Positions 11,448 to 42,693 of a stretch of 64,000 nt of DNA are shown here, piece by piece. Numbering within the stretch: the stretch's first letter is position 1; the number at the start of each line of letters is the position of its first letter. The DNA is from Lachnospiraceae bacterium (lineage in GTDB: Bacteria; Bacillota; Clostridia; Lachnospirales; Lachnospiraceae). The stretch spans positions 626 to 64,625 of the forward strand of contig JAFTJD010000065.1 in NCBI GenBank assembly GCA_017456585.1. The letters are read 5' to 3'. The position numbers and the translations under genes were made by a program. A model generated the notes under the pieces. That model did not search any database, was not told the origin of the DNA, and saw only the letters and a list, made by a program, of their open reading frames with translations.

Positions 11448-11478
11448 ATGGCTATCACAATTAAAATGTGATAGCCAT
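11448..11478. terminator. hairpin between convergent GH31 and tyrA
   Basis: Perfect 12-nt inverted repeat atggctatcaca / tgtgatagccat with a 7-nt loop. Confidence 0.55.
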
Positions 11479-11619: not shown

Positions 11620-12453
11620 TTAACCATCCACTTCTTCCTTACACTTCTTGCCTTCATAAAGAAGCTCCTTAAGAGTATCGGCATCTTCGTTTTTAAGTGC
11701 GTTTCTATATTTTACAAGCTCACTGATAAAAGTATCAAGTTCATATAAGAGATTATCTTTATTTTCCAAAAAAAGCTCTGTCCACATTGATTCGTTAAGC
11801 CATGCAACTCTTGTAAGATCCCTATAGCTTCCTGCCGAGAATCCCACATGTTCTTTGGCTGTAGGGCTCTTAATGAATGCATTGGATACAAGATGTGCCA
11901 TCTGCGAAGTAAAAGCTATCATCTTATCATGCTTGTCAGCTGTCGTAACGGTTACATTATTGAAGCCCGCCGGAGCAAGAAGCTCCTTAACACGTGACAA
12001 AAAGTTAATGTCATCGAAAGACTTCGGAACAAGAACCATGGTTGCTTTCTTAAACATATCGCGGTTACTGTATTTGTAGCCTGAGTAATGAAGACCTGCC
12101 ATCGGATGTCCACCGACAAATGTAAAGCCATATTGCTCTGATATCTCAAATCCGGCTTTACATACCTCTTCTTTGGTACCACAGCAGTCAATTACTATAG
12201 TTGACTTACTGATATGTGGTGCCATTTTTCTAAGATATTCGATTGAAAGTCTTGGGTAAAGTGCTATGAATACTAAGTCACAGTCCTTTATCGTTGTCTC
12301 GTTAAGCTCGTCTTTCATATCCTCTGCAAGAATTGCCAGCTTAACAATCTTCGTATCAATATCATAACCGTAAACTTCCCAGTCCTTGTGTTCATTGTAT
12401 GCCTTTATAAGTGAGCCTCCAATAAGACCCATACCTACTACTCCGACCTTCAT
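11620..12453 (-). CDS. tyrA: prephenate dehydrogenase
   Basis: 277 aa with VGVVGMGLIGGS NAD motif and GGHPMAG. Its start abuts the aroF stop. Confidence 0.85.
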   Translation of the reverse strand: MKVGVVGMGLIGGSLIKAYNEHKDWEVYGYDIDTKIVKLAILAEDMKDELNETTIKDCDLVFIALYPRLSIEYLRKMAPHISKSTIVIDCCGTKEEVCKAGFEISEQYGFTFVGGHPMAGLHYSGYKYSNRDMFKKATMVLVPKSFDDINFLSRVKELLAPAGFNNVTVTTADKHDKMIAFTSQMAHLVSNAFIKSPTAKEHVGFSAGSYRDLTRVAWLNESMWTELFLENKDNLLYELDTFISELVKYRNALKNEDADTLKELLYEGKKCKEEVDG

Positions 12454-13454
12454 TATCTTACTGCCTCCAATACCTTATTTACTCTGCGTACCACGTGGTC
12501 AAACTGCTCAGGTGTAAGTGACTGTGGTCCGTCGCAGAGTGCCTTCTGTGGATTGTTGTGTACTTCAATCATAAGTCCGTCAGCTCCTGCCGCAGCTGCC
12601 GCAAGTGCCATAGGCTCAACAAGTGCAGCCACACCCGTTGCATGACTTGGGTCAACTACGATTGGAAGATGGGTAAGACTTCTAAGCATCGGAATTGCTG
12701 ACAAATCAAGCGTATTTCTTGTATATGTTTCAAATGTACGAATTCCCCTTTCACAAAGAATTATGTTCTCATTACCACCTGCCATAATATATTCAGCACT
12801 CATAAGCCAGTCCTTCATGGTATTTGCAAGACCCCTCTTTAAGAGAATCGTCTTATTAGTCTTACCAAGTTCCTTAAGAAGTTCAAAGTTCTGCATATTT
12901 CTTGCGCCGACCTGAATCACATCTACATCTTCAAAAAGTGGTAAATGGTTAGCGTTCATAATCTCAGTTACAATCGGAAGCCCGGTAGCCTTCTTCGCTT
13001 CAAGAAGAAGTTCAAGACCTTCTCCCTTCATCCCCTGGAAATCATATGGTGAAGTACGTGGCTTAAACGCACCGCCTCTAAGCATAGTGGCACCGGATTT
13101 TTTTACATCATTTGCTACTTCTATGATCTGCTCTCTTGACTCTATTGAACATGGACCTGCAATAATAGCAAAGTTGCCACCACCAACCTTTGTTCCTCCA
13201 ACTTCTATAATTGTGTTATCCGGATGGAACTTTCTGTTTGCATTCTTAAACGGTTCGCTGATTCTCTTTACTGTCTCTACGATAGATAATGCTGATACCA
13301 AATCTTCATCAATCTTGCTTGTATCTCCAACAAGACCAAGTACTGTCTGATATTCACCTTCAGATACGTGTACCTTTACTCCCTGCTCCTCAAACCATTC
13401 GATAAGTTTTGCTCTCTGTTCAGTTGTTACTCCACTCTTTAATACTGTAATCAT
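12453..13454 (-). CDS. aroF: 3-deoxy-7-phosphoheptulonate (DAHP) synthase, type I-beta with N-terminal regulatory domain
   Basis: 333 aa with an ~90-aa ferredoxin/ACT-like N-domain, then KPRTSPYDFQG, VTEIM, VGARNMQN, and DPSH of KDO8PS-like DAHP synthases. AGGAGG RBS. Confidence 0.9.
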   Translation of the reverse strand: MITVLKSGVTTEQRAKLIEWFEEQGVKVHVSEGEYQTVLGLVGDTSKIDEDLVSALSIVETVKRISEPFKNANRKFHPDNTIIEVGGTKVGGGNFAIIAGPCSIESREQIIEVANDVKKSGATMLRGGAFKPRTSPYDFQGMKGEGLELLLEAKKATGLPIVTEIMNANHLPLFEDVDVIQVGARNMQNFELLKELGKTNKTILLKRGLANTMKDWLMSAEYIMAGGNENIILCERGIRTFETYTRNTLDLSAIPMLRSLTHLPIVVDPSHATGVAALVEPMALAAAAAGADGLMIEVHNNPQKALCDGPQSLTPEQFDHVVRRVNKVLEAVR

Positions 13455-13490
13455 GATATGCCTCCTGCTTATTATATTCTAAATGTATTG

Positions 13491-13667
13491 CTCGAAGCAA
13501 AGCTTCTCGCTGATTAGCATTCGCCAAATACGACACCTCGAAGCAAAGCTTCTCGTTGATCAGCATTCGCCAAATACGACACCTCGAAGCAAAGCTTCTC
13601 GTTGATCAGCATTCGCCAAATACGACACCTCGAAGCAAAGCTTCTCGTTGATCAGCATTCGCCAAAT
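13491..13667. repeat. 46-bp tandem repeat, about 3.8 copies
   Basis: Unit ctcgaagcaaagcttctcgttgatcagcattcgccaaatacgacac starts at 13491, 13537, 13583 and 13629. Copies 2 and 3 are identical, copy 1 has 2 mismatches, and copy 4 is truncated after gccaaat. Confidence 0.95.
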
Positions 13668-13777
13668 GAAATCGCATGCGCGATTTCATTTCGCATACTC
13701 ATGTTCATCGGTCATCTGTAAGCAAGCTTACATGACCGACAAATATGAGTATGCTTCGAAACCGCTCTGCGGTTTCG
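13664..13777. repeat. cluster of three consecutive palindromic hairpins
   Basis: H1 13664-13691 (12-bp perfect stem). H2 13693-13754 (nested arms gcatactcat / tcggtcat / tgtaagc). H3 13757-13777 (cgaaaccgc / gcggtttcg). Confidence 0.9.
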
Positions 13778-13789
13778 CTTGGCTCATTG

Positions 13790-13828
13790 CCATAACAAAA
13801 AGCCGATATCTGCTACCAGATATCGGCT
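13790..13828 (-). terminator. intrinsic terminator (candidate attenuator terminator)
   Basis: On the minus strand: AGCCGAUAUCUG-GUAG-CAGAUAUCGGCU, a perfect 12-bp stem, followed by UUUUGUUAU. Confidence 0.8.
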
Positions 13829-13859
13829 CAATAACTTCATCAACAAAACATGCAAAGTA

Positions 13860-14003
13860 TCAATCAGACGATTCTTGGTAGCACAATAAATCAACGCTAT
13901 AATAATAATAGCCCTGATAAGATACGTATGAATATTCAACTGACATATTCTTTATCTGCTGTTCTACCATATCCTTGATCCTTTCATTTTCTGCTAAATT
14001 CAT
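13860..14003 (-). CDS. candidate Tyr-rich leader peptide (47 aa; 36 aa from the internal ATG at 13970)
   Basis: Hand-translated; below the track cutoff: MNLAENERIKDMVEQQIKNMSVEYSYVSYQGYYYYSVDLLCYQESSD. The ATG at 13970 has AAAGGA 8 nt upstream. The first ATG lies only ~6 nt from the predicted TSS. Confidence 0.45.
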   Translation of the reverse strand: MNLAENERIKDMVEQQIKNMSVEYSYVSYQGYYYYSVDLLCYQESSD

Positions 14004-14015
14004 TTTTATTTTTTA

Positions 14016-14044
14016 GTTATAACTCTTTTTATAGGCAATGTCAA
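14016..14044 (-). promoter_or_regulatory. sigma-A-type promoter TTGACA-17-TATAAC
   Basis: -35 at 14044-14039, -10 at 14021-14016, 17-nt spacer. Immediately upstream of the Tyr-rich ORF. Confidence 0.55.
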
Positions 14045-14091
14045 GAACATTTTCCTCAAAAATATACATTAAACATGCATATTTCCGCATA

Positions 14092-15417
14092 TTAATTAAT
14101 ATAAAATGCTCGTACACCATGTTTATTTACGCTTGCATTAATTTTACCTGCTGCGAACTGTGCTTCTTCCTTGCTCCAAATATCAAACCCGGTAAGTACC
14201 TTTTCTTTTAATACTTCGTTCTCCTTAACAAGGTCTTTTTCTTCCAAATCATCAAGGGCAATTTCCAAATCCATATCTTCATCAGACAAATTAAATAATG
14301 CAACACATATCTTTCCTGTCTCAGAATTCTTATTCTTCCATACCGCAAATCTATTAGTTCTTACGAGCTGTGTTCCCTTACACTTTTCACCCATAAGCCC
14401 AAGCATATCTTTATTAGTAAGTAAGGATAATGTAAAATCATCTAGCTTTGTAAGTTCTGCGCCAACCATAAGCGGCGAACGGAACATACACCACAAGGTC
14501 ATCATAGTCATTTGCTCGTCCTTAGTAAAATTAGTAGGACGCTCTTTGCCAAAACCTCTGCCTAGTTTACCTACCGGAAGCATATCGCAATCCGGATAGC
14601 AACCTTTTTTTACATGGTCCTGCCACATTTCACAACGCCAGAACATATTCTTTAACAAATCCCAATTATCCCAGAAATCATCCGTAATTCTCCACATATT
14701 GGCATTATCACAGTATTTCCATGCCCTATCAATATGTGCAGGTCCCGGAGAAAGACTAAGCACAATATTTCGTCCTGTTTTCATGATTGCTTTATGTAAC
14801 ATTTCTGTTTCAAACCAACCATTAAATCCGTCATGTCTGTACATCCAGCTGTCGCATATATCATCACACTTTATAAAGTCTACACCCCAATCAGCATACA
14901 TGGATATAATAGAATCATAATATGCCTGACCTGCCTGATTATTCCTTACTCCGTACATATCGGGATTCCATCCGCAAATTGAAGATGGGTCTGCTATCAT
15001 ATCTGCTGTCCAGTCTGTTCCCATCACCTTACAATGCTGTTCTGCAGCCTTACGAGGAATACCTCTCATTATATGAATACCGAATTTAAGACCTAAGCTA
15101 TGCACATAATCAGCAAGTGGCTTAAATCCCTGTCCATCTACGGAAGACGGAAATCTAACCGGACTTGGAATAAATCTTCCCCACTCATCCATAGCCGTGT
15201 CTCCAAACGGAATATATTGATGCTTATCTCTCTGAGTGCCGGCATCATTAGAATACCACTCTATATCCACAACCACATATTCCCAACCATATTCCTTAAG
15301 GTTCTCTGCCATATAATCCGCATTAGCCCTAACCTCAGCCTCTGTAACCGTAGTATCATAGTAATCATAACTGTTCCATCCCATAGGTGGTGTTACCGCA
15401 AAATCATTCTTACTCAT
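14092..15417 (-). CDS. glycoside hydrolase family 27 (alpha-galactosidase-like)
   Basis: 441 aa with PPMGWNSYDYY and DFIKCDD (GH27 nucleophile region). Confidence 0.8.
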   Translation of the reverse strand: MSKNDFAVTPPMGWNSYDYYDTTVTEAEVRANADYMAENLKEYGWEYVVVDIEWYSNDAGTQRDKHQYIPFGDTAMDEWGRFIPSPVRFPSSVDGQGFKPLADYVHSLGLKFGIHIMRGIPRKAAEQHCKVMGTDWTADMIADPSSICGWNPDMYGVRNNQAGQAYYDSIISMYADWGVDFIKCDDICDSWMYRHDGFNGWFETEMLHKAIMKTGRNIVLSLSPGPAHIDRAWKYCDNANMWRITDDFWDNWDLLKNMFWRCEMWQDHVKKGCYPDCDMLPVGKLGRGFGKERPTNFTKDEQMTMMTLWCMFRSPLMVGAELTKLDDFTLSLLTNKDMLGLMGEKCKGTQLVRTNRFAVWKNKNSETGKICVALFNLSDEDMDLEIALDDLEEKDLVKENEVLKEKVLTGFDIWSKEEAQFAAGKINASVNKHGVRAFYIN

Positions 15418-15544
15418 AATCGTCCTCCATTCTTATACATATGATATCTGTTGCATATACAAAGTATTTTTTTGATATTATTGCTTTTTCACTTTATTTA
15501 ATTATAATACTAAATATAGGCATTTCAAAGAATAGATATTTGAC

Positions 15545-16402
15545 ATGGAGGGTAAATTTTTGATTAATTATACTTATGGCAATTATGGTTTTATCAAGCA
15601 TGAACGCATGCAAAATCAACCTCTTTTTTTGATAGATGCGGGAATAGAACATCGTGACAATACGCAGTACTATTATGATAATAACAATCGTTCAGCCTTT
15701 AATGGATACTTAATTCAATATACTCTTAGCGGAAATGGAGTTTTTGTAAAAAATAATGAACGCTATTCTTTAAAACAGGGCGACGCCTTTTTTGTTAAAA
15801 TCCCCGAAAACAGCTGTTACTATTTCGACAGTTCAACAGCTTCTGATTGGGACTTTTTTTACCTTCATTTTGATGGTGATAGTGCCTTACCCTTTTATGA
15901 AACAATAGTCAAACTTACAAATGGCGTTTTTCATATTGGTACCGACAAGGCTCCCCTTCATCTTTTTTTCAGTTTTATAGATAATTATGTGCGTAAAGGT
16001 TTTTTGGAATTATATGAAGGCGGAGAATTCGTATATCGCTTTCTCTCCGGTATACTTCGCGAAATTGAAGCTCCATCAGAAAACACCTCCTCTCAGATAC
16101 TCGCTGCAACCAGATTCATGCGTGATAATTTTGCAAGCATTGGCTCCATATCAGAGGTAGCTGATATTTGTAACATATCTACCGAACATTTTTGTCGTTG
16201 CTTCAAAAAAGAAAAAGGACATTCTCCATTGCAATTTTTAAACAAATTGCGAATAGAACATGCCCTATTTTTGCTATTAAATACCACAAGCAGTATCGAA
16301 GAAATCGCTACTGCCTGTGGATTCATGAATGGCAATTACTTTGCTAAAGTATTTAAAAAATATATGTTATGCACTCCCGGGGAATATCGAATCCGTAGTT
16401 AA
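15545..16402 (+). CDS. AraC-family transcriptional regulator
   Basis: C-terminal AraC HTH (ISEVADICNISTEHFCRCF ... IEEIATACGFMNGNYFAKVF). Divergent from the GH27 gene. Confidence 0.85.
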   Translation: MEGKFLINYTYGNYGFIKHERMQNQPLFLIDAGIEHRDNTQYYYDNNNRSAFNGYLIQYTLSGNGVFVKNNERYSLKQGDAFFVKIPENSCYYFDSSTASDWDFFYLHFDGDSALPFYETIVKLTNGVFHIGTDKAPLHLFFSFIDNYVRKGFLELYEGGEFVYRFLSGILREIEAPSENTSSQILAATRFMRDNFASIGSISEVADICNISTEHFCRCFKKEKGHSPLQFLNKLRIEHALFLLLNTTSSIEEIATACGFMNGNYFAKVFKKYMLCTPGEYRIRS

Positions 16403-22572: not shown

Positions 22573-22732
22573 TTTTCCACCTCTTTCTATTTTTACTTTA
22601 TTCTTTAATTATGAAAGTCGTCTGCTACAACTCCGTTCTCCCGCATCCGCCTCCATTCGCATTCTGCGCTATCGAGTTCATGCTCGTTCAGGCTTAGTTT
22701 GCAAATATCTCGACAATTTTGCCAACAAGCTA

Positions 22733-23932
22733 TCAAATTGTCGAGCTGCTTGCCAACACTTTCATAACATATTGTTTCGCTGTTCTTGCGGAGCGACCGC
22801 TTCCCGCAAGTGCAAAAGCTTCCGCTTCAACTGCAAGCTTTTGCTCATCCATTTCTATATTATACTGGTTTAGAATACCTTTTACAATCTCTATGTATTC
22901 TTTTTTACCCGGTTTAGAAAAAGTAACCGTTAGTCCGAATCTGGCCGAAAGCGATATAAGCTGTTGTATCGTATCGTTTCGATGAATATCGTCCCCTTCT
23001 CTGTCTGAGAAGCTTTCTCTAACCAGATGTCGACGATTACTTGTAGCATATATAACTATATTATCTGCTCTCGCCGAAACGGAACCTTCAAGCGTAGCTT
23101 TGAGCGCTCCGAAACAGTCATCATCTGATGAAAAAGATAAATCATCTATAAACAATATAAACTTAAGTGGATTACGGCTTATGCTGTCAATAATTAGAGG
23201 AATATCTCTAAGTTGCTCTTTAGTTATCTCGATAAGTCTAAGACCTTGATTAGCAAATTCGTTAACTACAGCCTTAACTGTCGAAGACTTACCCGTTCCC
23301 GCATCACCACAAAGAAGTACATTCTGAGCAGGTTTACCCGAAAGCAACGCAAGCGTATTATCAATAACCTCCTGACGCTCTCTCTGATACCCAATAAGGT
23401 CTGAGAGTCTTGTCTCATCAGGATATTTTACAGGTACAACCTTACTATCCTTAATGATAAACATAGAATACTTAGCATAAAGACCATAACCAAAATTGCC
23501 TATTCCAATAATTCGCTTGCGATATTCAGCCTTAAAATCAATTTCTTCGGTTCTCCATTCCGGAAGAAATCCATTGTAATCAATAGTCGCCGCAACTTCC
23601 GAAGATGTGAGTCTTGAGATGCTCTCAAGCACCTCAAGTTCTCTCATCGCACACTCTTCAATAAGTTCATCAACCACCTTGCCCTCAGCATGGCGTATAA
23701 TATATGAATTCTCATCCTGAAGTACAAGTTCAAGCAAATACTTACTAAGATTCTCTGACTTCTTATAAAGCTCATACACAAACTTTGAATAAAGTCTTAT
23801 CTGTACAAGTGAATCATCTTCCTCTGCTGCAAGTAATTCTGAAAGTGCACTTATAACTTTTTCTTTTAAAATTCCTCTGAAAATAACCAGAGAATTGAGC
23901 CCCAGATCAAGCTCTTTTAAACGGGTATTCAT
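22733..23932 (-). CDS. DUF815-type AAA+ ATPase
   Basis: 399 aa with Walker A (LLCGDAGTGKSS) and Walker B (FILFIDDL). Starts 1 nt after the leuB stop. Confidence 0.8.
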   Translation of the reverse strand: MNTRLKELDLGLNSLVIFRGILKEKVISALSELLAAEEDDSLVQIRLYSKFVYELYKKSENLSKYLLELVLQDENSYIIRHAEGKVVDELIEECAMRELEVLESISRLTSSEVAATIDYNGFLPEWRTEEIDFKAEYRKRIIGIGNFGYGLYAKYSMFIIKDSKVVPVKYPDETRLSDLIGYQRERQEVIDNTLALLSGKPAQNVLLCGDAGTGKSSTVKAVVNEFANQGLRLIEITKEQLRDIPLIIDSISRNPLKFILFIDDLSFSSDDDCFGALKATLEGSVSARADNIVIYATSNRRHLVRESFSDREGDDIHRNDTIQQLISLSARFGLTVTFSKPGKKEYIEIVKGILNQYNIEMDEQKLAVEAEAFALAGSGRSARTAKQYVMKVLASSSTI

Positions 23933-33664: not shown

Positions 33665-33946
33665 GGAATAAAAAAAGCCCCCCTTATGCTATTGCATAAA
33701 AGAGACGAAGAAGTTCTACTCCGTGGTACCACTCTTTATTGACATATACATGCCCACTCACGCATCATCAAATAATGTGCCTCTCTGTAACGGGAGAAAA
33801 CCGTTCCAACCTACTTTGCATAAGAAAATGCGGTTCAGCCGACTGCTCCGGGAGGAGTTTACTTACCCTGTTTTACCACCTTACACCGGCCGGTGGCTCT
33901 CTGCGAAAACAAAAATAAGTTTTAGTTCCCTTCATTGCATTTATTG
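33665..33946 (-). promoter_or_regulatory. T-box leader (probable Leu specifier) with terminator
   Basis: On the minus strand: stem-I-like AGAGAG...GGUG; AGUA followed by AACUC (CUC = complement of 33855-33857); T-box sequence AAAGAGUGGUACCACGG (33721-33738); terminator CUCUUUUAUGC-AAUA-GCAUAAGGGGG plus U7 (33670-33706). Confidence 0.8.
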
Positions 33947-42446: not shown

Positions 42447-42462
42447 AATGCATACCTCCTAA

Positions 42463-42625
42463 TCGAGTAGGCTGACTCCTACTCGCTTCTGCAAGCAGAC
42501 ACCTCGAAGCATAGCTTCTCGTTGTTCTTGCGCCTGTCAAATGAAAAGGTATGCAAGCATCCTTTCCCGGTCGGCAATTTTGCTTTCGCAAAATTATCCG
42601 ACAAGCTTTACAGGCTTTTGCTTCA
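42463..42625. repeat. second copy of the modular hairpin element (shares its core with the 13.5-kb tandem repeat)
   Basis: acacctcgaagcatagcttctcgttg at 42499-42524 matches the 46-bp unit core with 1 mismatch. Flanked by hairpins cgagtagg/cctactcg, aaaggtatgc/gcatccttt, and cggcaattttgc/gcaaaattatccg. Confidence 0.8.
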
Positions 42626-42662
42626 AAAAGGAGCATCGCCCCACAAGTTGATTCGATGCTCC
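42625..42662 (-). terminator. intrinsic terminator of the MCP gene
   Basis: On the minus strand: GGAGCAUCG (15-nt loop) CGAUGCUCC followed by UUUUUG. Confidence 0.75.
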
Positions 42663-42693
42663 ATTCTATGTATTGCAATATAAAAATTATTCC

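Follow-up and report, generated by a model that had tools for sequence, protein, structure and literature searches.

How does a Lachnospiraceae bacterium adjust the transcription of its tyrosine-branch gene pair aroF-tyrA (DAHP synthase and prephenate dehydrogenase) to the supply of the end product? The question is raised by a 64,000-nt stretch of contig JAFTJD010000065.1 (assembly GCA_017456585.1, positions 626 to 64,625; hereafter the window, from the first letter of which all coordinates are counted), in which a promoter, a short tyrosine-rich open reading frame (sORF) and an intrinsic terminator precede the two genes on the minus strand. Based on the analyses described below, aroF-tyrA is very probably controlled by transcription attenuation of the ribosome-mediated (leader-peptide) type, with charged tRNA-Tyr as the signal. 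The elements concerned, in the order of transcription, are the following:

14016..14044, minus strand: leader promoter, read from the sequence (-35 box TTGACA at 14044-14039, 17-nt spacer, -10 box TATAAC at 14021-14016)
13979..13984, minus strand: Shine-Dalgarno sequence AAAGGA, 8 nt before the ATG at 13970
13961..13978, minus strand: predicted region 1 (anti-antiterminator), the start-codon stretch that would pair with region 2 in untranslated RNA
13860..13970, minus strand: leader peptide reading frame of 36 aa, MVEQQIKNMSVEYSYVSYQGYYYYSVDLLCYQESSD, stop codon TGA at 13862-13860
13899..13934, minus strand: Tyr codon cluster, with Tyr codons at 13934-32, 13928-26 and 13919-17 and four consecutive TAT codons at 13910-13899
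13864..13884, minus strand: region 2 (5' strand of the antiterminator), formed by the last sense codons of the leader frame; core GCUACCAAGAAUCGUCU at 13882-13866
13793..13830, minus strand: intrinsic terminator, consisting of region 3 (5' arm and loop, 13830-13812), region 4 (3' arm, 13811-13800) and a U-tract (13799-13793)

The constituents of an attenuator were thus found in their expected arrangement: the 5' leader of the biosynthetic operon contains a short reading frame equipped with a Shine-Dalgarno sequence and a start codon; codons for the operon's own product are clustered in it (Tyr; aroF-tyrA); an intrinsic terminator lies between this frame and the first structural gene (starting 30 nt past the leader stop codon); and, in silico, a mutually exclusive antiterminator can form, the 5' strand of which would be free at a Tyr stall and covered at the stop codon. 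The promoter, the AAAGGA motif, the Tyr run and the stop codon had been placed correctly by a first-pass annotation of the window. Its reading frame, 14003..13860 with 47 codons, was quoted with the right sequence but begins too early: ATG 14003 and the first 11 codons are unconserved in every orthologue, the conserved start being the internal ATG 13970 (13970-13968), and the 47-aa version was rejected on these grounds. An overlapping frame at 13939..13784 on the minus strand (51 aa, TTG start, hydrophobic product) was discounted, as it lacks an ATG and a ribosome-binding site and crosses the terminator; it is also open in the orthologous loci L081 and L082, probably as a by-product of their approximately 90% nucleotide identity.

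The leader contains eight Tyr codons and neither Phe nor Trp codons. Seven of the eight fall within 12 codons, and the eighth (13880-78) is located inside region 2; in the 47-aa frame all eight lie among the 19 residues 24-42. The leader holds the sole YYYY run in the six frames of the 64-kb window (0.44 expected per window from a first-order Markov model) and also the sole 19-aa stretch with at least eight Tyr (0.05 expected).

Orthologous leaders were collected in two ways. The 47-aa peptide, searched against 5.8 billion proteins, retrieved two 35-aa homologues, both starting at the position of the internal ATG; further orthologues were obtained by an aroF protein search and subsequent contig look-ups. 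(The aroF-based genome and metagenome scans returned nothing closer than 80% identity; the close relatives came from the peptide and aroF protein searches.) The resulting seven orthologous loci have aroF 81-98% identical to that of the window (L081 and L082, 95%; L167, 98%; L168, which is grouped with L082, and L169, 96%; L170 and L171, 84%; L172, 81%); the contig of L168 starts 202 nt upstream of aroF, so that its promoter and sORF start lie off the contig. Their common layout comprises a TTGACA-17-TATAAT promoter, a Shine-Dalgarno sequence, a start codon, an sORF with a Tyr run, a terminator and the two-gene operon aroF-tyrA, the terminators being positioned 60-120 nt upstream of aroF. The comparison of related leaders that the first-pass annotation had proposed therefore turned out in favor of its reading: promoter, ribosome-binding site, frame, Tyr codons, stop codon and terminator are kept in the seven loci, and all insertions and deletions within the reading frame are multiples of three. 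The peptides share the core EY.Y(V/F).(S/F)YQGYYY(Y) with 5-8 Tyr and 0-1 Phe (one Phe codon is kept in L167 and L170-L172); QGYYY(Y) is present in all orthologues, and in homologues further away Phe occupies the same positions. L081 and L082 show no change in the -35 box or in AAAAAGAGTTATAAY despite differing upstream genes, AAAGGA is invariant in the window, L081 and L082, and the -10 box reads TATAAT in six of seven orthologous loci (L081, L167, L169-L172) and TATAAC, as in the window, in L082. It is owing to the missing final T of TATAAC that the promoter was not listed by a consensus scan.

The genes upstream of the leader differ among these loci: a DHHW gene is found in L081, L167 and L169, while L170 and L172 have a GerA gene in divergent orientation; GH27 also occurs among the upstream neighbors. 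In consequence, the caveat of the first-pass annotation that the hairpin could simply terminate the GH27 gene does not apply; the same leader occurs behind DHHW or divergent GerA genes where GH27 is absent, and it travels with aroF. As regards the gene content of this junction, a GH27 alpha-galactosidase gene and a divergent AraC-family regulator gene (window 14092-16402) sit between the DHHW gene and the leader promoter; both are absent from the same junction in L081, L167 and L169, which indicates a cassette that closely related species have gained or lost.

The two alternative RNA structures were examined with RNAfold. The terminator stem (13829-13800) was measured at 13 pairs including a closing G-U, six of them G-C, with the loop GUAG and a free energy of -21.2 kcal/mol, followed by UUUUUGUU; the hairpin reported earlier as a 12-bp stem was thereby recovered in place. 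The antiterminator pairing proposed by the same annotation was reproduced as well: in RNA 13886-13812, i.e. before the 3' arm is made, 13882-13866 pairs with 13828-13812 in the minimum free energy (MFE) structure (-19.4 kcal/mol), and addition of the 3' arm turns the terminator into the MFE structure. For the full-length leader -61.8 kcal/mol were calculated in the terminator state and -51.6 kcal/mol with the antiterminator forced. As the equilibrium favors the terminator state, the decision would have to be kinetic, as in other attenuators. With a ribosome stalled on the last Tyr codon, region 2 begins approximately 7 nt past its calculated edge; at the other end, 3 nt lie between region 2 and the stop codon. 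Region 1, which does not vary among the three closest species, owes its putative role to one MFE prediction.

According to this arrangement, transcription would start approximately 7 nt past the -10 box (14021-14016), and a ribosome would initiate at ATG 13970 and translate the 36-codon leader. With plentiful Tyr-tRNA, the ribosome would reach the stop codon at 13862-13860 and cover approximately 13877-13850, leaving at most 6 nt of region 2 free; the nascent hairpin 13829-13800 with its U-tract would then terminate transcription. With scarce Tyr-tRNA, the ribosome would stall on the Tyr run, so that, with the last TAT codon (13901-13899) in the A site, its leading edge would lie at approximately 13889 and region 2 would be free to pair with the emerging 13830-13812; formation of the terminator would be blocked, and RNA polymerase would continue into aroF-tyrA. 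In untranslated RNA region 2 would be held by the start-codon region 13978-13961, and termination is therefore the predicted default.

Both helices were assessed for covariation in a MAFFT alignment of eight orthologues, with the structure derived from the window sequence. In the terminator helix 98.8% of the cells are paired and three pairs show compensatory double changes; in the antiterminator helix 92.1% are paired and two pairs are double-changed. None of 500 shuffles reached the score of either helix, and slid registers gave 19-47% and 21-47% pairing, respectively. The antiterminator changes are from A-U to G-C at alignment columns 65:131 (L170, L171) and 68:128 (L167, L169, L172); most of its unpaired cells stem from L172, the terminator loop of which was shifted by one column by MAFFT. 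A four-sequence terminator alignment including the more distant L002 was 100% paired, with three compensatory pairs. On the leader side the substitutions replace amino acids, Tyr by Cys (TAC to TGC) and Gln by Arg (CAA to CGG), and they are matched in the terminator loop and arm. Since these changes alter the peptide yet keep the pairing, selection in this segment acts on the RNA pairing rather than on the peptide. Such pairing-driven change of a coding segment is what an attenuator would predict, and not what a functional small protein would.

The first-pass annotation had presented the leader as a single candidate in a Firmicute; the attenuator interpretation was supported, yet the leader proved to be no isolated oddity but part of a large leader family upstream of Clostridial aroF. 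By aroF-based scans of GTDB genomes and metagenomes 160 further loci (aroF 64-80% identical) were collected. An sORF with at least six aromatic residues per ten was found within 450 nt upstream of aroF in 88% of the first 81 loci, versus 1.1% of 552 control upstream regions drawn from the same loci; with the threshold set at five and pheA allowed before aroF, a Phe/Tyr-rich sORF precedes aroF in 131 of the 152 loci from Clostridia, with a terminator-like hairpin behind it in 115 of the 131. Typical peptides are M..FAAEYFYFYFYF..., MNKLFATAYYYYFFSREKR and MKSIFVFAYYYYFTMDS, and the usual downstream operon is aroF-tyrA-aroB-aroA(-aroC). The window leader conforms to the family definition, i.e. 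an sORF rich in aromatic residues that lies 60-200 nt before aroF (or pheA-aroF) and a terminator complementary to the 3' part of the sORF or its downstream flank. The family includes cultured gut species, among them Hominicoprocola fusiformis, Flintibacter faecis, Angelakisella massiliensis and Sporobacter termitidis.

Folding with a ribosome parked on the aromatic run let the 5' arm of the family terminators pair with the segment around the leader stop codon (mean -17.6 kcal/mol versus -12.2 kcal/mol with the upstream part shuffled), and cognate leader/terminator duplexes averaged -14.1 kcal/mol compared with -11.0 kcal/mol for non-cognate ones (permutation p <= 2e-4, n = 104). What persists throughout the family is confined to the aromatic run and the segment engaged in RNA pairing; the length and the sequence of the peptide are free to vary. 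AT-rich Phe/Tyr codon runs are retained even in loci of 63-67% G+C. The C content of the wobble position correlated weakly with locus G+C (rho 0.21) and was not used as coding evidence. A further observation concerns codon choice in the leaders of loci L007-L120: even at 63-67% G+C, Phe and Tyr are mostly encoded by TTT/TAT rather than TTC/TAC. These are likely rare codons in the high-G+C genomes and might sharpen the sensitivity of stalling.

These family-wide data bear on a different explanation of the sORF, namely that it encodes a functional small Tyr-rich protein or peptide (e.g. a signalling or modified one), with the hairpin as its own terminator and aroF transcribed from a separate promoter. 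The sORF was indeed called as a gene in two metagenome assemblies, and its sequence is well conserved among close relatives; family-wide persistence, however, is restricted to the aromatic run and the pairing segment, and changes in the C-terminal residues go along with changes in the terminator loop. Moreover, no promoter-like site was detected between terminator and aroF, where the orthologues have 40-100 nt that are mostly ribosome-binding site, no modification or export genes are linked, and aroF is the constant partner of the sORF among otherwise varying neighbors. A functional peptide is accordingly regarded as highly improbable.

In Firmicutes T-boxes and protein-mediated antitermination are common, and three relatives have a T-box upstream of aroF. 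The switch might therefore be set by a trans-acting factor (uncharged tRNA as in T-boxes, a TRAP-like or other RNA-binding protein, or a small molecule binding a riboswitch), the reading frame being incidental. However, no T-box (RF00230) was detected in 13300-14300 at E <= 10, and no other Rfam family matched the leader at this limit, the amino-acid leaders of Rfam (Phe_leader, Trp_leader, His_leader, Leu_leader, Thr_leader and the leu/phe leader) included; a T-box or other known RNA identity was rejected on the basis of these scans. The canonical T-box of the window (33698-33944, minus strand; 112.5 bits) served as positive control, in agreement with the first-pass annotation, which had seen a T-box motif elsewhere in the window and none in this leader. 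Six other leader-bearing family members, cultured species among them, likewise gave no Rfam 15 match at E <= 0.1. The conservation of frame, start, stop position and codon identity, the restriction to in-frame indels, a 5' part too short and too variable for an aptamer and the maintenance of Phe/Tyr runs in genomes of 65% G+C also speak against a trans factor, which we consider most unlikely. As the window holds both a T-box and the leader-peptide attenuator, the organism would use both devices for different amino-acid pathways.

Fifteen family-search loci had no leader in the 450-500 nt upstream of aroF. In L083 and L012, two of these, aroF lies behind pheA and the leader is located upstream of pheA. 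In three others (L110, L117 and L130) a T-box occupies that position (L110 331-602, L117 236-498 and L130 2625-2936; 100-108 bits). Such a T-box in place of the leader peptide has the appearance of a natural sensor replacement at one locus, a sensor-swapping pattern as described by Naville & Gautheret 2010 (PMC2965389).

If the attenuator is real, to which amino acid does it respond? Peptide alignment revealed the window leader to be homologous to those of L083, L111 and L002 (EY..SYQGYY...LC[CY]..S; window EYSYVSYQGYYYYSVDLLCYQESS, L083/L084 EYFFFSYQGLYFSAGNLCCCKQS, L111/L150 FYYFSFQGYYFYPDYFCCNESS; L002 aligns likewise), and the window terminator is homologous to that of L002. The Phe positions of the L083/L084, L111/L150 and L002 leaders are Ser, Val, Tyr or Leu in the clade of the window. 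In the nearest outgroup, L083/L084 (aroF 80% identical), the leader contains four Phe and three Tyr and precedes pheA-aroF-tyrA-aroB-aroA; within the 81-100% clade, the operon consists of aroF-tyrA only in every member whose contig extends past tyrA, and the leader is Tyr-dominated in all. We infer that the leader became specialised to tyrosine, with loss of its Phe codons, when the operon shrank to aroF-tyrA. Across the 131 leaders the Tyr fraction is 0.51 with tyrA as next gene versus 0.37 without (uncorrected for phylogeny), and 0.54 without pheA versus 0.42-0.45 with pheA (with counter-examples such as L085). As this link between composition and operon content is a trend that is not phylogeny-corrected and has counter-examples, the within-clade comparison is relied on instead. 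Concerning the outgroup leader itself (L083 1760-1879, and L084; MMTKEYFFFSYQGLYFSAGNLCCCKQS, upstream of pheA-aroF-tyrA-aroB-aroA), its LCCC codons (UGCUGCUGU) look, by eye, complementary to the terminator loop (ACAGCGGCA).

The same composition data have to be set against a variant in which the attenuator is real but responds to Phe, to aromatic amino acids generally or to translation speed or stress, the Tyr run merely acting as a slow patch. Most family members mix Phe and Tyr codons, L167 and L170-L172 keep one Phe, and transcription from the F-Y-F leader aroR upstream of aroF in Corynebacterium glutamicum was affected by Phe limitation and not by Tyr availability, according to the account of Neshat 2014 given in PMC11802643. 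In the window, however, eight Tyr codons stand against no Phe or Trp codon; the aroF-tyrA-only clade has 0-1 Phe versus 5-8 Tyr, the pheA-containing outgroup four Phe and three Tyr, and the Phe positions of the homologues have been replaced. Specificity of this leader for tyrosine is thus suggested by its codons, and a response to other cues is judged distinctly improbable.

Terminator and aroF are separated in the window species by additional DNA:

13480..13790, minus strand: species-specific hairpin/repeat insertion in the 5' untranslated region (UTR) of aroF, outside the conserved attenuator

The approximately 335-nt spacing, listed as a caveat in the first-pass annotation, is real; as this DNA is absent from all sister species (L081, L082, L167, L169-L172), it is explained as an insertion into the 5' UTR. 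The insertion is strongly structured (z = -8), with hairpins that lack U-tracts; it contains a 46-nt tandem repeat (13491-13667, minus strand; 3.8 copies) and, at 13631-13758, a match to Clostridiales-1 RNA (RF01699) of 36.7 bits (E ~1e-6), below the gathering threshold of 48 bits. Two metagenome contigs of the same species (L163 and L164; found by a tyrA look-up, an exact aroF look-up being without match) have an identical leader and differ only by two fewer repeat units (92 nt shorter, approximately two copies), so that the repeat number varies between strains. These properties would also suit a scenario in which the insertion, by a processing site, a small RNA (sRNA) gene or a cryptic promoter, has uncoupled or modified the attenuator of the window species and left the leader as a relic. 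Against this, the elements of the attenuator are intact and the leader is 100% identical in the three strains, and the consensus and terminator scans of the window gave no promoter-like or terminator-like site between terminator and aroF, the insertion included. We regard uncoupling as unlikely.

Several points weigh against the proposed tyrosine-sensing attenuator and should be kept in mind. Translation of the sORF, ribosome stalling, the response to tyrosine and function in the window species are inferred from sequence elements, conservation and covariation. In that species an insertion of 335 nt of hairpin DNA stands between terminator and aroF, and the leaders of the three strains, being identical, offer no variation by which present selection could be gauged. 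The -10 box TATAAC of the window is a weaker match than TATAAT, and L082 has an interrupted U-tract (UUAGUUUGUUUU). In trpL, region 1 covers the regulatory codons; its predicted counterpart here is situated at the start codon and would hence not be masked by a stalled ribosome. The covariation rests on approximately five independent lineages, with the structure taken from the window sequence. Finally, as the example of C. glutamicum aroR indicates (PMC11802643, citing Neshat 2014), Tyr codons may be no guarantee of a Tyr response.

Traditionally, leader-peptide attenuation is assigned to Proteobacteria and Actinobacteria, and T-box or TRAP regulation to Firmicutes; the leu/phe leader of Lactococcus (Rfam) is a Firmicute precedent for leader-peptide attenuation. 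To our knowledge, the pathways classically cited as leader-controlled do not include that of tyrosine. The window leader resembles Escherichia coli pheL-pheA and trpL-trpEDCBA in its translated leader with a run of end-product codons, in its competing terminator and antiterminator and in that the ribosome position would decide between them; it differs by the predicted sensing of Tyr, the Lachnospiraceae host, the position of region 1 at the start codon and the lack of sequence similarity. E. coli aroF-tyrA is under the control of the TyrR repressor and not of a leader (PMC11802643), and Tyr has been listed under T-boxes for RNA-level regulation (PMC1262725). T-box leaders share the tRNA-charging logic, the terminator/antiterminator switch and, in L110, L117 and L130, the same position, but bind uncharged tRNA directly without translation, and the window leader is devoid of T-box features. 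Among Firmicutes, His leader peptides upstream of hisZ/hisS in bacilli replace T-boxes (Naville & Gautheret 2010, PMC2965389); these and the leu/phe leader concern another amino acid, other genes and other taxa, without sequence relationship to the present family.

Closest in gene context are aroR and uORFC-13-1. Like the window leader, aroR is an aromatic-codon leader directly upstream of a DAHP synthase gene and, as summarised in PMC11802643, subject to ribosome-mediated attenuation; in contrast to this actinobacterial F-Y-F leader, the window leader has eight Tyr, no Phe and tyrA as operon partner. The uORFC-13-1 motif (Brewer et al. 2021, PMC8632094), with a predicted upstream open reading frame (uORF), promoter, ribosome-binding site and terminator, is known from 24 representatives in Acholeplasma, a lineage related to Firmicutes, and in environmental sequences; it was located upstream of aroF without exception, none of the representatives is assigned to Clostridia, and a role as aromatic amino acid sensor was proposed. 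No family of Rfam 15, where a model of this motif might be contained, matched the window leader. It is alike in its aroF association and in its uORF/terminator layout; its U-run encodes at least one Phe, whereas the window leader is without Phe codon (the two were compared by description only). The supplementary text of Brewer et al. mentions neither uORFC-13-1 nor aroF. In the literature covered, which is incomplete, no description of a Tyr-specific leader or of a Clostridial aroF leader family was found, with uORFC-13-1 and aroR as the only analogues. The mechanism is classical, and the paradigm is thereby extended rather than changed; new are the proposed Tyr specificity and the apparent prevalence of the family in Clostridia.

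Taken jointly, we lean, with modest confidence, towards the view that leader-peptide attenuation, and not the T-box, is the predominant control of aroF in gut and rumen Clostridia, that it constitutes a large family, of which no published description was found, with codons tuned to operon content, and that purging of Phe has produced the first Tyr-specific leader-peptide attenuator. Most of the Clostridia sampled have a Phe/Tyr leader peptide before aroF, in a phylum thought to prefer T-boxes, and the minority of relatives in which a T-box takes its place offer a clean natural system for the study of sensor swaps; one clade appears to have been retuned from Phe plus Tyr to Tyr alone as its operon shrank to aroF-tyrA. 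As such sORFs are almost never called, their recognition would improve the annotation of gut-microbe genomes and help to predict which members of the microbiome are prototrophic for aromatic amino acids and how they regulate this; another conceivable use of the element is as a compact genetic part that responds to Tyr.

The operon itself comprises the following features:

12453..13454, minus strand: aroF, DAHP synthase with N-terminal ferredoxin-like (FXD) domain (Pfam PF00793 and PF18152); ribosome-binding site AGGAGG at 13466-13461
11620..12453, minus strand: tyrA, prephenate dehydrogenase (Pfam PF02153 and PF20463), overlapping aroF by 1 nt; last gene of the operon
11448-11478: bidirectional terminator-like hairpin after tyrA, from the terminator scan

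The Pfam domains agree with the gene functions named in the first-pass annotation. The FXD domain (PF18152) is presumably the allosteric Tyr/Phe-binding domain known from Thermotoga-type DAHP synthases; by analogy, feedback at the enzyme level probably complements the transcriptional control.

Elements related to the insertion in the aroF 5' UTR occur elsewhere in the window. A full Clostridiales-1 RNA (RF01699, 56.4 bits) is located at 22609-22767 (minus strand) between a DUF815 gene and a PALP (threonine dehydratase-like) gene; the orthologous junction of L081 (1028-1041) lacks the element, with 13 nt between the two genes, and therefore this "sRNA" behaves like an insertable intergenic element. 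Its presence also alters the C-terminus of the DUF815 protein. Another intergenic hairpin array was found at 42450-42680 (minus strand), after a terminator and upstream of the next gene; it includes, at 42498-42527, a 93%-identical copy of the core of the aroF 5' UTR repeat unit (GACACCTCGAAGC.TAGCTTCTCGTTG). The copies at both sites suggest a dispersed hairpin family in this genome, similar to repetitive extragenic palindromes or miniature inverted-repeat transposable elements (REP/MITE-like).

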